Sequence record: ON528725
DNA length: 64,000 bases
Direction: 5' to 3' (one strand)
Origin: Shigella phage ESh15
Part shown: piece after piece, positions 3,850 to 10,293 of the stretch
Layout of the letters: every line of letters starts with the position of its first letter
How positions within the stretch are numbered: the first letter of the stretch is position 1
Notes under the pieces: model-generated
Database searches by the model: none
What the model saw: only the letters and a program-made list of their open reading frames with translations
Told to the model about the DNA's origin: nothing
Made by a program: the position numbers and the translations under genes

Positions 3850-5937
3850 CTATCCTTGAACAAATTTAAACGGAACCGATTCTAAATCCATTAAAGATGC
3901 TAACAGTTTCAATCCTTTAGGTGCACTAGTTTTTTCTACAAATGAGGCAAAAGATACCGGCTCATCTGATTCGATTTCACCAGTCATAGCAACCACCTCG
4001 CCTGTTTCCATGAGAACATCACCATCGTAAATGACTGCTTCATCCAACTGGTCTGAGGACATGACTTCAGCTTGAATAAATTTAAGGTTGGATTCTAAAC
4101 CTGCACCAGTATCAGATGACGCATCTGTAATTTTATTTATCTGCAAGAGAATGCCTCTAGGCAAAATAATTTCTTGCTCATTAGGGTGATTACTCAACTG
4201 TCCTGGGTAAATCACGTTAACTTTATGAGCACCATCAATAGCCCATCCAACGTTAACACGGATTTGTTCTGGTGCATGCATAGCTGTTCTTACTTGACTA
4301 GGAGAAATAGTAACACCTTCGTCATTATTGTCAATGTTAAGCTCTTTGCGAACTTCTTCAGGAGCAAGTCCAAGGGCAACGTTCTCTTTAAACCCGCCGA
4401 AAATAATAGGAGCTAATGAAGTAGAAACATAGTTTCTGAAGTAGAATACCTTATTTTTAACCATTGCTTCGTAAATAGGCATTCTGATAGACTGAGCTCT
4501 ATATAACGTTAGTCCTTCAGGTAAACGGTCTCCATTTAAAAACGCTGAATCAAGACCATCAATAGCGCGTTTAACTTCATCTTCATCTGCAACATCATAA
4601 AAATCCGGTTTATAACGACCTAACAACATATTATTGATATCGGTATACGCAGAAGAGGCATATTCACGAATAGCTCGTTTTTCAGCAACAGAGTATTGTT
4701 TAGGGTCACGATTCATTGTTATATTAAAGGTGCCTCTAGCCGATTCTCGTGCATAAGTATACATCACATTAGACAAGAACGCCGATTTACGTTGTTTCCA
4801 AGTTTTTTCAGATACTTCAGCTAAAACGTCGTCAGCCAGTTGGAAATTATCTCGTCTAAAATCTTCAAACCATTCGTCTTTAATAGAGTCTGCAATTTCG
4901 TTTGCAGCTTCAACAAAAGCAGCTAATGCTTTAACAGATGTTGTTTTTTCGGTTTTAATTTTCTTAGCAAACTTTTCTAAAGACGGCTTAATAACACTAC
5001 CATAAGAAACTTCATCAGCAAATCTAAAGGATTCATCAATACGATTATAAATCTTATTTTCGATATCAGCAACTAAAGTGCCTTTTGCTGTGGACGATGC
5101 TTGGGCTAGTACGATTTCATATGCTTCAGGAAGTAATTCGGCTGTAGCCGGGCCACTAACTTCTTTAGCAGAATTTTCGTATTTCTGGAATAACTCGCCT
5201 TCTTGGCGGTCAGCTTCTAAAGATTGACTTGCTGCAATAGCACGACGAGAAATTTTAGTACGAGCAATAACAGGCTTATCTTTACGTTTTTCTTCTACAG
5301 CAGCAATAGAACCAGCGATAGCCGTTTCTTTGGTGACCTTTTCGCCAGTCTTTTTACTCACATAAACTTCGCCAACATCAGAATCTACTTTCGTGTACAA
5401 CTCTGTGTTAATGTTAGGGATGCCTTTAATATCTTCAATGTTGGCATTTTTACGAACCATCATCACATATGTGTGTTTACCTGTGAATTGATACATTGCA
5501 GACAGTACTTTAAAACGACCACCAGTTTTAGTAGAAACTAAACGAGCAAGAAGAGTTTGAAGCTGTTGTCCACGTCCTTTCAATTTCTTGGTAGGGAATC
5601 GGAACAAAACTGCATCCATACGAAGAGCTTTAACCTGTTCATACACTGTATTGAAAATGGTGTTGATTGCATCAATAGGAGCAGGACCAAGGCCATTTTT
5701 CAATTCAGCGAGATTACCCTTTTCAGACAGACTCATAATAACGACATGAGCGTATTTGTCGCCGAGTTTAACTTGTTTTACAGCATCGCCTTCGGAAAGG
5801 TAAGAGAATAAACGAACTACAATATTTGTATCGATATCACCAATTTTCCAGACTTGTGGAACTTTAGCTTTAGGGTTCAAATTGACGACAGGAAGACTGC
5901 CTTCAGATTCAAACACTTCATTTAATTGTTCAGACAT
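3850..5937 (-). CDS. alt: Alt ADP-ribosyltransferase (packaged, modifies host RNA polymerase)
   Basis: 695 aa (T4 Alt 682 aa); N-terminal sequence closely matches remembered T4 Alt; located between gene 54 and DNA ligase as in T4. Confidence 0.88.
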   Translation of the reverse strand: MSEQLNEVFESEGSLPVVNLNPKAKVPQVWKIGDIDTNIVVRLFSYLSEGDAVKQVKLGDKYAHVVIMSLSEKGNLAELKNGLGPAPIDAINTIFNTVYEQVKALRMDAVLFRFPTKKLKGRGQQLQTLLARLVSTKTGGRFKVLSAMYQFTGKHTYVMMVRKNANIEDIKGIPNINTELYTKVDSDVGEVYVSKKTGEKVTKETAIAGSIAAVEEKRKDKPVIARTKISRRAIAASQSLEADRQEGELFQKYENSAKEVSGPATAELLPEAYEIVLAQASSTAKGTLVADIENKIYNRIDESFRFADEVSYGSVIKPSLEKFAKKIKTEKTTSVKALAAFVEAANEIADSIKDEWFEDFRRDNFQLADDVLAEVSEKTWKQRKSAFLSNVMYTYARESARGTFNITMNRDPKQYSVAEKRAIREYASSAYTDINNMLLGRYKPDFYDVADEDEVKRAIDGLDSAFLNGDRLPEGLTLYRAQSIRMPIYEAMVKNKVFYFRNYVSTSLAPIIFGGFKENVALGLAPEEVRKELNIDNNDEGVTISPSQVRTAMHAPEQIRVNVGWAIDGAHKVNVIYPGQLSNHPNEQEIILPRGILLQINKITDASSDTGAGLESNLKFIQAEVMSSDQLDEAVIYDGDVLMETGEVVAMTGEIESDEPVSFASFVEKTSAPKGLKLLASLMDLESVPFKFVQG

Positions 5938-5993: not shown

Positions 5994-6202
5994 TAATCCA
6001 CAATCGGAAGCAAAGTACGATAAACTTCAAAATTAGGGCCTTTTTCGTACTTATCAAAATTGTCCATAAAAATATGATAGGAATCGTTATTAGGAAAATC
6101 TAATACAATTTGGGAACAAGAGGTGGAAACATCTCCACCATCCTTCTTAGCTACAATAACTGTTTCTAAATAAGCTTTCATTATAAACCTGTCTGGGACC
6201 AC
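5993..6202 (-). CDS. Hypothetical small protein between ligase and alt
   Basis: Minus-strand ORF, 69 aa in track; start uncertain. Confidence 0.35.
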   Translation of the reverse strand: MVPDRFIMKAYLETVIVAKKDGGDVSTSCSQIVLDFPNNDSYHIFMDNFDKYEKGPNFEVYRTLLPIVD

Positions 6203-7674
6203 GGTCCAAATACGTCTTCAAATGAATCCGCTTCTGTTTTATCAAAACGGAACCCTTTAATAATTGGAAGGAAAATACCTACAGTACCTTCACGGCCTTT
6301 AGAATGAACCCAACCATTACATTCACAATCAGCGATACGTCCAATTAATTTACCTTCACGAGCTTCAGTCATTAATCGTTCACGGTCTAAATCATGACGC
6401 TCGTCTAAAGGAATAAGAACCTTTACACCGTCAACTGTTTTATGAGTTGTATCTTTAAAACCTGAACCACAATCGGTTGTAATACGACGACAACGTGATA
6501 CGAGTTCGACACCACCTAATTTGTTAGGGTCCTTAGAGTGTTCATAGTATCCTACAACTTCTAAAGCGATATCAATAACTTCTTTAAATTTAATTAGGTT
6601 CTTAGAGCGTTTGTTTTCCCAATATGAATCACGGTTTTTAAGGATAATACCTTCAAGACCTTGGTCAACATATTTTTTATAAACCACTTTAGCTTCGTCA
6701 AGATTATGAACTAACTGATTTTCAATTGGCTCAATTCGTTTAAAGCCTTCAGCCATATTTTCAAGAGCAGCAAAACGAACATCATATTTCTGACCTTTAA
6801 TTTTGCCATCAGAATAGACTTCATCTAAAGGAACATAGTCCCAGGCTTGAAGAACCATACCTTCAGCTTCTTTAGGAGAAATAGTCCCTTGAAGAGATTT
6901 ATTTGCTAAACCGTTTGAAGTGCTACGGTCCGCAACTTGTACTTCTTCGGATTCTTCATTATCACCAAATAAGAACGACAGGTCATTTCCTGAGCTCACA
7001 GCCTTTTTAATATCAAATGAATGGTAAACTAATTCACCGTCGATTAAAACCCCATTAGGGTGTCTTTCACGGGCTTCTTTAGTCATTTCCATTAGTTCAT
7101 CCGCTAATAGAGTAAGACCATGGTATTCATTACCAGCACGAGAAAAGAATTGAACACCATCATCGCGAACTTCAGCGAAACAACGAGCACCATCTGCTTT
7201 TAATTGGGCAAATGCGGGCCATTTAATATTTTTAGTAATCAATTTCTCATCATATGCGGATGCTAACATCTGTGGTTGCAATTGAATAAGTCCAGGCCAT
7301 ACCTTATTCGCGATAGACACTGAAGCACCTACTTCAAGGTCGCGCATCATTACACGACGAAGGACTTCTACATCATCAGGTTTACCGTCAGCGATATAAC
7401 CCATGAGCTCTTTAATTGCTGCATTACCGGTGAGTTTACGAGTGGCCAATGTGAACTCAATAAAATCCAACATGTCATCTAATTCAAGAAGACCATACGC
7501 TTGAGACCTTTCACCTGGTCCTGGCCATTTCTTAATATAATACTGGATACCACGTGCATATGTTAAACGATACACACGTTCAAGTAATTTGTTGTCCTTA
7601 TTTTTCTTAAGGATTTCCTGTTTTGTTTTAGTAGAACCGATCGCAGCTATTTGGTTTAAAATATCTAAAATCAT
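6181..7674 (-). CDS. 30: ATP-dependent DNA ligase gp30
   Basis: 497 aa (T4 ligase 487 aa); adenylation motif KADGAR present (FAQLKADGARCFAEV). Confidence 0.95.
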   Translation of the reverse strand: MILDILNQIAAIGSTKTKQEILKKNKDNKLLERVYRLTYARGIQYYIKKWPGPGERSQAYGLLELDDMLDFIEFTLATRKLTGNAAIKELMGYIADGKPDDVEVLRRVMMRDLEVGASVSIANKVWPGLIQLQPQMLASAYDEKLITKNIKWPAFAQLKADGARCFAEVRDDGVQFFSRAGNEYHGLTLLADELMEMTKEARERHPNGVLIDGELVYHSFDIKKAVSSGNDLSFLFGDNEESEEVQVADRSTSNGLANKSLQGTISPKEAEGMVLQAWDYVPLDEVYSDGKIKGQKYDVRFAALENMAEGFKRIEPIENQLVHNLDEAKVVYKKYVDQGLEGIILKNRDSYWENKRSKNLIKFKEVIDIALEVVGYYEHSKDPNKLGGVELVSRCRRITTDCGSGFKDTTHKTVDGVKVLIPLDERHDLDRERLMTEAREGKLIGRIADCECNGWVHSKGREGTVGIFLPIIKGFRFDKTEADSFEDVFGPWSQTGL

Positions 7675-7940
7675 TTGATGTCCTCGATTTTGGTTACGGT
7701 TCTATTATAAGCCACTTCATCTAGAAGCGATTTCAGCGTTTTCTGATAAGTAGTAATCCATTTACCGAGTCCTTCAACATAGTATTCTGAAATGTAGATG
7801 AACCCTTGTTCAACACACTCTTTAAATACTTCTGCGTCTTTTACTGAACGAAACAATGGCCAGTCTCGAAAGAACATGTTAACATGACCGTAGTCACGTG
7901 TGGTGTTTTTGCCATCTGTAATATCATGAACTACAAACAT
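7671..7940 (-). CDS. Hypothetical protein (30.1-position)
   Basis: 89 aa ORF whose stop overlaps the ligase start. Confidence 0.5.
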   Translation of the reverse strand: MFVVHDITDGKNTTRDYGHVNMFFRDWPLFRSVKDAEVFKECVEQGFIYISEYYVEGLGKWITTYQKTLKSLLDEVAYNRTVTKIEDIK

Positions 7941-7949
7941 AATTAACCC

Positions 7950-8774
7950 TTAACAATTTATAGACCAAGTCCATTTAGACGAATCTAAAGGAAAGTTTTG
8001 AATCGTCCACCACGGCTGCATATCAGTTGGTCCTGGGGTTCGCCAGGTATATGGAGTACGTGTTGTCGAGGGGCCACCAATTTGATTAGGCCATGCGCCT
8101 GGACTTGTTGCACCAGATTCTTTAAGCAAATCCGCCAATCGTTTTAAAAGGTCTTCACGATCTGAATCTGAATTATTCTTAGGCAGAACCAAACGAGATT
8201 CAATATCATCCCATGTGTGTACACGTTGTGCAGTACGAGGAATATCATCACGTTCACCACGGGCCAACCAATAAATCGGTACATTAAGAATTTCCGCCGC
8301 ATGGTCACAGTGATGAGCTAAATCGTCAACATAACAAATCACGTTATATTTTGTTTTAGCTAGTTCGAATAATTGTTCTTTTGAAGAATCATGACCACAC
8401 ATCATTACTTCAGAGAAAGCGCCTGGGAACAAAGCATTCAAATTAAATTGTCTATTCAATCGGGCATCAATTGAATCACCTAGCGCCGTCACGGCTACAA
8501 AATTATAGTCTTCTTTTAGTTTATTGATAACTCGAAGAGCATCCGAATAAGGCGCTAAGTAACGAATAAAATCAGAGCGATTATATTTTTCTATTAATTG
8601 TTTACCAAGGTTATCGTCAGTATTGAACAGTTTACCAGGAGAAATAAATTTTTCGTCCTGAATCATTTTTAAAATATGTTCTAATGGAAGATTATATTTT
8701 TGGGCAAAATAAGGAAGTCCAGATTGCCAGCTTAAACATACACCATCAATATCAGTCAAAATAGTAGGCTTCAT
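7950..8774 (-). CDS. HAD-superfamily hydrolase/phosphatase-like protein with a low-complexity C-terminal extension
   Basis: N-terminal DxDG motif (MKPTILTDIDGV) typical of HAD phosphatases and 5'(3')-nucleotidases; ATG overlaps the stop of the upstream NADAR ORF (ATGA). Confidence 0.6.
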   Translation of the reverse strand: MKPTILTDIDGVCLSWQSGLPYFAQKYNLPLEHILKMIQDEKFISPGKLFNTDDNLGKQLIEKYNRSDFIRYLAPYSDALRVINKLKEDYNFVAVTALGDSIDARLNRQFNLNALFPGAFSEVMMCGHDSSKEQLFELAKTKYNVICYVDDLAHHCDHAAEILNVPIYWLARGERDDIPRTAQRVHTWDDIESRLVLPKNNSDSDREDLLKRLADLLKESGATSPGAWPNQIGGPSTTRTPYTWRTPGPTDMQPWWTIQNFPLDSSKWTWSINC

Positions 8775-9229
8775 AAAGAGTCTCTTAATAGGTTTAACAC
8801 ATCAATAAATTCAGCTTCGGTTAGTATTGTATCATCTTTTGTTAGGTGGCTAGCCATGCTGTGCTTCAAAATTTTTCCTTTAGAGGCTTGTAAGGCATCA
8901 CGAAACCCCTTATTTTGGATCGCGGCTTCAAAATATGCATTTGTGTATAATTCTTTCCACGCTTCAGAGTATCTTGAAAATGGAACTCCTAACCAGAAGA
9001 GAGTTCCACGGTCCTGAGCTCTTGCATAAGACCTTCCAGCTTGCTGTGCAGCCAATCCAGACAACCCAAATATACGTCTTTGTTGTTCAACATTTTTCAC
9101 CTTACATCCTTGGAGAAATCCTTCAAGACCTCCGAATTGAATACCATCCATAACAAAAGGCCATTGAGCAAAGTTACTTAATGCACATGACGGCCACTTG
9201 AAATTACTTCTTATTTCTAATTCAGACAT
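8771..9229 (-). CDS. NADAR-domain (YbiA/DUF1768-like) protein, putative ADP-ribose N-glycosidase
   Basis: Motif block FKWPSCALSNFAQWPFVMDGIQFGGLEGFLQGCK resembles the YbiA/NADAR signature (FSNFA..WP..VDG......E..FQ..K); track start is GTG at 9238, first ATG at 9229. Confidence 0.7.
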   Translation of the reverse strand: MSELEIRSNFKWPSCALSNFAQWPFVMDGIQFGGLEGFLQGCKVKNVEQQRRIFGLSGLAAQQAGRSYARAQDRGTLFWLGVPFSRYSEAWKELYTNAYFEAAIQNKGFRDALQASKGKILKHSMASHLTKDDTILTEAEFIDVLNLLRDSL

Positions 9230-9434
9230 CTTTAACACTTATAATTTCAACATCAGCCCAATGACCGTAACTAGGCAGACGGTCTTCAATAGATAAACCA
9301 CCGTCATTTTTAAGCATTTTAATTGTCTTGATAAACGGTTCATCCTGTGGATGAATAGGCGAGCAGTCAGTTACACGATAAGTAACTTCAATCATTTCCG
9401 TACCAAACAATTTCTGGATTAATTTATTCAACAT
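9222..9434 (-). CDS. Hypothetical small protein
   Basis: 70 aa minus-strand ORF in the 30.x block. Confidence 0.4.
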   Translation of the reverse strand: MLNKLIQKLFGTEMIEVTYRVTDCSPIHPQDEPFIKTIKMLKNDGGLSIEDRLPSYGHWADVEIISVKDV

Positions 9435-9621
9435 GTTTTAACCCTTTAATAGGAGACAGCTCTTTACCCATACGTATGTCAGAAGTCCCATCAACCCATT
9501 GAACCGCATACGCTTCATTGATAATACCTGCGCTAGTTTTAAATTCATGGAGAACTTTAAAAATCATCCCAGGGATTCCAACACCTTTTAATTGGACTGT
9601 TTGTGCTATTAAAAATTTCAT
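9424..9621 (-). CDS. Hypothetical small protein
   Basis: 65 aa minus-strand ORF; early promoter cassette immediately upstream. Confidence 0.4.
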   Translation of the reverse strand: MKFLIAQTVQLKGVGIPGMIFKVLHEFKTSAGIINEAYAVQWVDGTSDIRMGKELSPIKGLKHVE

Positions 9622-9641
9622 ATTTTTCCACTTACTAAAGA

Positions 9642-9676
9642 AATCATTATACTCTAATCCATCCTTGGATGTAAAC
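9642..9676 (-). promoter_or_regulatory. T4-type early promoter cassette (GTTTAC -35, TATAAT-like -10)
   Basis: Minus strand reads GTTTACATCCAAGGATGGATTAGAGTATAATG; upstream of ORF 9424-9621. Confidence 0.55.
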
Positions 9677-10293
9677 TACTTAACGAAATTAATTTCTACC
9701 GGATGAACAACAGGTTGAGCAGTGATATATTGAGTAATTGCTTTCATGACTAGAGCTTCAGAACCAGGATTTTTCTCAACGAATTCACGTGCTTGGTTAT
9801 GAGCTTCAAGTTCACTTAGTAAACCGCTTCGTTGGCATCCACGGTCTTGAGTACCCTGTTCAGATAAAAAGACGACGATGTATTTTTCGTCATCATCATA
9901 CGGTTTAGACGGTTGAGCAAATGTTCCTTTACTTCCGAAAGGAGAGTTATGCCGCCACATATCACCGTGAGGAGTTTCAACCTTCGTGTATTCATGCGGT
10001 CCATTTTTCTTAGTTTCTTTCCATGGAACTTCATGGACCTTAGGGTTAGGACATTCAATAAAATGCTCATCTAAATCGGTAGAGAATATTAAAGTAAAAC
10101 AATTACTGAATTTACCAGCACCTGCCTGATAAATTTTACCTTCAGAAGTTCTAATTTCACAAACTGAGCCGGCATCAGTAACTTCTAAAACTTCAAAAGG
10201 CTCGATAAGGTCATATGAGAACATGTTTTTAAGGCGTGGAGTAATATCCCCATTTTTAAAATTCATTTTATAAAAAGTATTAACTTTAAACAT
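9676..10293 (-). CDS. Hypothetical protein, 205 aa
   Basis: Minus-strand ORF with RBS-like GAGGAA upstream; no recognisable motif. Confidence 0.5.
   Translation of the reverse strand: MFKVNTFYKMNFKNGDITPRLKNMFSYDLIEPFEVLEVTDAGSVCEIRTSEGKIYQAGAGKFSNCFTLIFSTDLDEHFIECPNPKVHEVPWKETKKNGPHEYTKVETPHGDMWRHNSPFGSKGTFAQPSKPYDDDEKYIVVFLSEQGTQDRGCQRSGLLSELEAHNQAREFVEKNPGSEALVMKAITQYITAQPVVHPVEINFVK

Follow-up and report, generated by a model that had tools for sequence, protein, structure and literature searches.

Phage NADAR proteins that reverse DarT-type DNA ADP-ribosylation represent a real and important form of counter-defence, which is already known and was published in 2024-2025 for a T4 gene near-identical to the one described here. 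The product of this T4 gene, gp30.3, was renamed AdfN (anti-DarT factor NADAR) by Johannesman et al. [quoted passage not shown] The allele of RB69, shorter by 15 residues and without the C-terminal helix, is defective, with reduced activity, and DarTG2 is not countered by AdfN (PMC11825919). Although AdfN is active in T-even infection, its co-expression gives no rescue from DarT1 toxicity in uninfected cells, and phages T5 and Bas25 are barely rescued by it; a further factor supplied by T-even phages is suspected by the authors (PMC11825919). An independent study reported guanine-specific de-ADP-ribosylation in vitro and described a His in the last strand as typical of phage NADARs (Toxins 2024, PMC11125620).

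The sequence of events shown for T4 would be expected to apply to the locus presented here as well. In an infected DarTG1 host, guanines of the phage DNA would be ADP-ribosylated by the DarT1 toxin, and replication would be blocked. AdfN, a stand-alone NADAR, would cleave the N-glycosidic bond by means of E36, K43 and the clade-specific H123, releasing ADP-ribose, and this removal would restore phage replication.

The stretch of DNA analysed here (the window) comprises 64,000 nucleotides of Shigella phage ESh15 (ON528725), a T4-like phage (Tequatrovirus) whose bases 7600-9700 share 96-98% identity with many Escherichia phages. A first-pass annotation had singled out two neighbouring ORFs, a small NADAR-type protein and a HAD-type hydrolase, as a candidate module for the reversal of ADP-ribosylation. 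Both are indeed present on the minus strand, where the genes follow each other in the direction of transcription as 30.5, 30.4, 30.3, 30.2, 30.1 and 30 (Table 1). The pair had been placed downstream of the ligase gene; relative to transcription, it lies upstream. From 30.5 through 30 the junctions are spaced by -11, -8, -4, +9 and -4 nt. The ATGA overlap of the pair was confirmed at 8774..8771, read from the sequence, but its reading as a sign of special coupling, or as the mark of a dedicated pair, was rejected because start and stop codons overlap at four of the five junctions (30.5/30.4, 30.4/30.3 and 30.1/30 in addition to 30.3/30.2). The promoter match just upstream of 30.5 is a candidate that fits a single early transcript running from 30.5 through 30.4, adfN, 30.2 and 30.1 into the ligase gene; the total count of sigma-70 consensus matches across the region was not higher than in shuffled sequence.

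Table 1. Features of the 30.x region; positions are those of the window, except in the last row, where they refer to the individual loci.
Feature	Position	Strand	Remark
alt	3850..5937	-	
Gene 30, ATP-dependent DNA ligase	6181..7674	-	Conserved downstream neighbour of 30.2
Gene 30.1, DUF3045, 89 aa	7671..7940	-	Between 30.2 and the ligase gene; PF11243, E 3.4e-26
Gene 30.2, 274 aa	7950..8774	-	
Gene 30.2, C-terminal tail	7950..8111	-	Residues 222-274 and stop codon
Gene 30.2, HAD catalytic core and helical C1 cap (predicted)	8112..8774	-	Residues 1-221
Gene 30.2, HAD motif I	8753..8745	-	D8-x-D10-G
ATGA overlap	8771..8774	-	30.3 TGA stop / 30.2 ATG start; T4 has the same overlap
Gene 30.3 (adfN), 152 aa	8771..9229	-	ATG start, as in the T4 annotation
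Gene 30.3 from in-frame GTG, 155 aa	8771..9238	-	
Gene 30.3, catalytic codons	E36 9124..9122; K43 9103..9101; H123 8863..8861	-	
Gene 30.4, 70 aa	9222..9434	-	Stop codon overlaps 30.3 start by 8 nt
Gene 30.5, 65 aa	9424..9621	-	First of the tightly packed string
Candidate early promoter, sigma-70-like	9646..9675	-	TTTACA / 18-nt spacer / TATAAT; 11/12 positions match the consensus
NADAR loci outside the T-even group	L080 6001-6462; L081 6007-6462; L082 6001-6444; L083 5995-6513		

Two further differences from T4 were observed in this region. A 205-aa ORF at 9676..10293 (-), which matches phrog_17531 and carries no Pfam match, stands where T4 carries the 95-aa gene 30.6, and represents a lineage-specific replacement within the variable 30.x block. 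In addition, a 75-aa gene, 30.3', is annotated in T4 records in an alternative frame inside 30.3. In the phage described here the matching frame (8989..9093, minus strand) stays open over no more than 34 codons, an argument against the conservation of 30.3' as a gene.

Judged by its sequence, gene 30.3 of the window is adfN and would encode a NADAR-fold DNA guanine ADP-ribosylglycohydrolase, a function assigned from its 97% identity to the T4 protein, its full length and its intact catalytic residues. The two proteins are identical at 147 of 152 residues and of equal length, with no truncation, and the five substitutions (window residue first: K11R, E89P, I120V, M125I and H128G) all fall outside conserved positions. 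The C-terminus is identical to that of T4, and the full-length C-terminal helix is kept. The peptide ALSNFAQWPFVMDG...EGFLQGCK, quoted in the first-pass annotation, was found in the product; E36 and K43 of its E-G-F-L-Q-x-x-K segment are invariant among 44 members of the gp30.3 family, and H123, within the predicted strand 120-123, is likewise invariant in the family alignment. The T4 NADAR construct described in the Methods of PMC11125620 spans residues 1-208, compared with the 152-aa gp30.3 of T4 and of the window, and its boundaries or phage source may differ from the annotated gp30.3.

The NADAR assignment of the small ORF stood with respect to profile and fold, but not with respect to the Pfam model of that name. 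A profile search with the gp30.3 family matches YbiA (2b3w, E 1.1e-3), and gp30.3 has a YbiA-type alpha+beta fold, by which the NADAR relationship can be seen. PF08719 (NADAR) was not matched by gp30.3, whose sole Pfam match up to E 0.1 is PF08010 (Phage_30_3, E 1.9e-69), and a direct search of gp30.3 against PDB sequences gave no match. PF08010 is a phage-specific model for the same fold as PF08719, and a distant gp30.3 homolog (P0180) carries both. The anti-DarT activity proposed for the small ORF has been demonstrated, by deletion and with purified enzyme, for the 97%-identical T4 protein; the central hypothesis of the first-pass annotation was therefore right, yet already known from the published T4 AdfN work. 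One of the checks it suggested, rescue from DarT toxicity by co-expression, also has a published answer, which for uninfected cells is negative.

The product of gene 30.2 starts with MKPTILTDIDGV and reads as a HAD phosphatase of the C1-capped type that retains each of the four catalytic motifs, an ordinary-looking phage HAD enzyme. The DxDG motif already noticed in the first pass consists of D8 and D10 (motif I, D8-I-D10-G-V), both invariant among 38 close relatives and in an 84-sequence alignment of distant relatives. Motif II (T96) is at least 90% conserved, motif III (K132) is invariant, and motif IV (D150-D151) is invariant among close relatives. W16 and R108 are conserved in the wider family, W16 nearly invariantly. 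While the HAD call is borne out by these four motifs and by a Rossmann-like HAD core fold with a large helical C1 cap, it was not reproduced at Pfam gathering level: the best score of the window protein was 15.5 bits for HAD_2, below the cutoff of 23.8, no Pfam model reached its gathering score for this protein, and the best generic-HAD E-value among gp30.2 family members was 3.5e-4. A search of NCBIfam gave nothing useful, that of PHROGs matched only families of unknown function, and comparison with PDB sequences yielded non-significant matches only, the family profile performing no better. A literature search found no paper on gp30.2.

To characterize the family further, an exhaustive HMMER profile search was carried out, which recovered 1143 cluster representatives at E <=1e-3 and went further than a word-indexed homolog search with the gp30.2 alignment, which stayed inside the close phage family. 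Pfam NT5C (PF06941) was matched by seven of the 38 close relatives (best E 0.0029) and by 35 of 83 distant members sharing 20-30% identity (best E 4.2e-10), among which generic HAD models were matched by 17 and 16. One distant member scores above the NT5C gathering threshold, and the same protein matches the gp30.2 profile at E 1.9e-21; window gp30.2 itself gave no match to PF06941. By profile comparison, the wider gp30.2 family thus grades into the 5'(3')-deoxyribonucleotidases (Pfam NT5C). A weak direct alignment of gp30.2 to the mouse deoxyribonucleotidase 2jao spans the DxDGV...W stretch, and weak HMM alignments pair W16 with a Phe of 2jao, which we take to be the equivalent of the base-stacking Phe49 in the mitochondrial enzyme mdN. 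Dtm of Bacillus phage PBS1, a member of PF06941, is a proven dTMP phosphatase (PMC12697855). Given the NT5C matches of the distant members and the example of Dtm, gp30.2 is probably an NT5C-like phosphomonoesterase acting on a small nucleotide, predicted to be Mg-dependent and of the HAD superfamily with a helical C1 cap. As NT5C proteins are its nearest characterised relatives, a small molecule of the nucleoside monophosphate type would be its most likely substrate. Several distant relatives are fusions in which the gp30.2-like HAD domain is accompanied by long N- or C-terminal regions (P0285, 591 aa; P0329, 660 aa; P0230, 430 aa; P0270, 365 aa), and these extra regions gave no Pfam match.

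The C-terminal tail of gp30.2 (residues 222-274) contains 17% Thr, 15% Pro and 11% Trp, in agreement with the Pro/Trp/Thr-rich tail recorded in the first pass. It is modelled with low confidence (pLDDT about 46-59) and predicted to be disordered. The tail is missing in many homologs, including some close relatives, and hypervariable in the rest, across which a motif W-(R/K)-T-P-G recurs; a second element, IGTGIEY...QPT, is common in many phages but not present in this one. About 146 phage records carry a tail of the window type (>=95% identity), and about 586, including T4, T4T and T6, fall in the 60-80% identity band. An origin of the window tail by frameshift from the T4 tail was considered and rejected because the DNA itself has diverged. 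Speculatively, this disordered and hypervariable tail may serve as an interaction handle.

The contributions of the two genes can be compared in T4, from which all functional data on 30.2 and 30.3 derive and whose gp30.2 tail differs from that of the window. In a T4 transposon screen (HIDEN-SEQ, bioRxiv 10.1101/2025.11.20.689424, Extended Data Table 6, sheet S6), only 30.3 and 30.4 were significant on DarTG1. Insertions in 30.3 were lost (log2FC -7.25, adjusted p 0) and those in 30.4 depleted (log2FC -1.79, adjusted p 0.014), whereas insertions in 30.2 were neutral (log2FC -0.12, p 0.61, adjusted p 1.0, 71 sites) (10.1101/2025.11.20.689424). In the same study, 30.2 was non-essential on K-12, with 72/72 sites hit, and neutral in minimal medium (HIDEN-SEQ). 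The DarTG1 screen was run on a single host with a single DarTG1 plasmid in rich medium and would therefore overlook a redundant or conditional role of 30.2. A functional partnership of the HAD gene with the NADAR finds no support in these results, in which 30.2 mutants stay fit on DarTG1 while 30.3 mutants vanish.

The gene context was surveyed in 78 IMG/VR loci with a 30.2 homolog. A DNA ligase gene is found at most 1.7 kb downstream of 30.2 in 72 of these loci, whereas 30.3 abuts 30.2 in 16, all from T4/RB69-like phages; another 21 loci have 30.3 at a distance of 31-1300 nt upstream, separated from 30.2 by further genes, and 37 have no 30.3 in an upstream flank of at least 5 kb. A distance of about 59 kb separates 30.3 from 30.2 in Citrobacter phage Merlin. 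Adjacency of the supposed module is therefore limited to T4/RB69-like phages, and it is the ligase gene that represents the conserved neighbour of 30.2. Beside the gp30.3-family NADARs of CcrColossus, phiM12, RSP15 and Merlin (four loci), no HAD neighbour was found. Outside the T-even group, an RNA ligase adjoins the NADAR in Caulobacter phage CcrColossus and Sinorhizobium phage phiM12, a CCA-adding enzyme is encoded near it in phiM12, and in Merlin and Ralstonia phage RSP15 the NADAR lies within tRNA gene arrays. Such surroundings may point to a role connected with the repair of RNA or tRNA, or with ADP-ribosylation of RNA and not of DNA.

Taken together, these data point with good confidence to two functionally separate early genes, AdfN (30.3) and an NT5C-like HAD phosphatase (30.2), of which the latter is required neither for growth nor for counter-defence against DarTG1. 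The ATGA overlap would then reflect ordinary operon compaction, with no dedicated two-enzyme pathway behind it. Other activities are conceivable for each protein. For gp30.3, a preference for soluble substrates over DNA, be they intermediates of the riboflavin pathway, as with E. coli YbiA, or ADP-ribose signals of low molecular weight, would agree with the shared YbiA fold, with an earlier comparative-genomics paper that favoured soluble ADP-ribose derivatives as targets of phage NADARs, and with the DarT1 toxicity that persists in uninfected cells despite AdfN. For T4 gp30.3 this has already largely been refuted by the removal of ADP-ribose from DNA in vitro, the impaired catalytic mutants and the loss of plaquing on DarTG1 after adfN deletion, and we consider it extremely improbable. 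For gp30.2, one such activity would be that of a DNA-end 3'-phosphatase, similar to the PNKP phosphatase domain, that cleans nicks for the ligase encoded just downstream; such a role was set aside given the large cap and the NT5C affinity, and appears unlikely. If the NT5C likeness reflected cap architecture only, gp30.2 could also be a phosphomutase or a HAD phosphatase for non-nucleotide substrates, i.e. sugar phosphates such as ribose-5-phosphate. This is conceivable but doubtful, as NT5C outnumbers every other specific family in the matches of the distant members, with one above the gathering score, the near-invariant W16 stands opposite a Phe of 2jao in the weak HMM alignments, and dTMP phosphatase activity has been proven for one phage member of PF06941.

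The extension of the anti-DarT idea to 30.2 is probably wrong. In the module envisaged, gp30.2 would aid AdfN against DNA ADP-ribosylation, either by processing a phosphorylated product derived from ADP-ribose or by being itself the T-even-specific factor. Several observations are compatible with this: 30.3 and 30.2 overlap in T4/RB69-like phages, in 37 of the 78 loci 30.3 precedes 30.2 by at most 1.3 kb, AdfN fully works only during T-even infection, where its authors suspect an extra protein, and RB69, which is rescued by AdfN, has 30.2 too. They are outweighed by the neutrality of 30.2 insertions on DarTG1, where 30.3 insertions are lost, by the loci without 30.3 upstream and the wide separation in Merlin, by the related NADARs without HAD neighbour, and by the overlaps found throughout this operon. 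Moreover, it is established chemistry that ADP-ribose, the product of the NADAR reaction, offers a HAD phosphatase no phosphomonoester to act on. A module of this kind is thus very unlikely. It is also improbable that gp30.2, as a phosphatase of nucleotides or of ADP-ribose-derived phosphates with its tail docked on the ligase or the replication machinery, aids counter-defence or underlies the T-even dependence of AdfN under conditions beyond those of the single published screen.

The need of AdfN for a T-even-specific factor leaves formal room for a phage-encoded helper, and on this point the genetics point away from gp30.2 and, with less weight, towards 30.4 or a polar effect. As the stop codon of 30.4 overlaps the adfN start, which has a poor Shine-Dalgarno sequence, the depletion of 30.4 insertions could be a polar or translational-coupling effect on adfN. 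Alternatively, 30.4 may genuinely assist AdfN, and it is a possibility that the missing factor is encoded on the other side of adfN, as the 70-aa gp30.4. Homologs of gp30.4 were detected only in loci where 30.3 abuts 30.2, and no similarity to gp30.4 was seen in the small ORFs that directly precede the gp30.3-like genes of distant phages.

Since the T4 gene has already been published, the window adds one more allele of adfN and no new biology in that respect. Of modest value is the description of gp30.2 as a widespread NT5C-like phosphatase kept beside DNA ligase across T4-like phages. In comparison with the NT5C enzymes of PF06941 (human cdN and mdN; PBS1 Dtm), window gp30.2 and its close relatives score below the gathering thresholds of NT5C and of all HAD models, and gp30.2 has an added amphipathic helix and a disordered, aromatic/Pro-rich tail. 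We know of no need, in the T4-like phages that keep 30.2, for a monophosphatase to remove a canonical nucleotide. The HAD phosphatase domain of T4 polynucleotide kinase/3'-phosphatase (PseT) is capless, with polynucleotide ends as its substrates; gp30.2, in contrast, carries a large helical cap and lacks a kinase domain.

With regard to gp30.3, similarity to the DarT1-associated NADAR antitoxins (DarG1; Geobacter lovleyi NADAR, PDB 8bat) and to E. coli YbiA (2b3w) is found at the profile level only, and the third catalytic residue is a His in gp30.3 but an Asp or Glu in NADARs of the DarG1/YbiA type. Unlike DarG1, gp30.3 is encoded by an orphan gene without a linked toxin, and AdfN cannot stand in for DarG1 in uninfected cells. 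The closest described protein is T4 AdfN, with an allele five substitutions away from that of the window, whose activity we infer from this likeness; both have E36, K43, H123 and the C-terminal helix, and in both phages the gene is flanked by 30.4 and 30.2 and shares the ATGA overlap with the latter.
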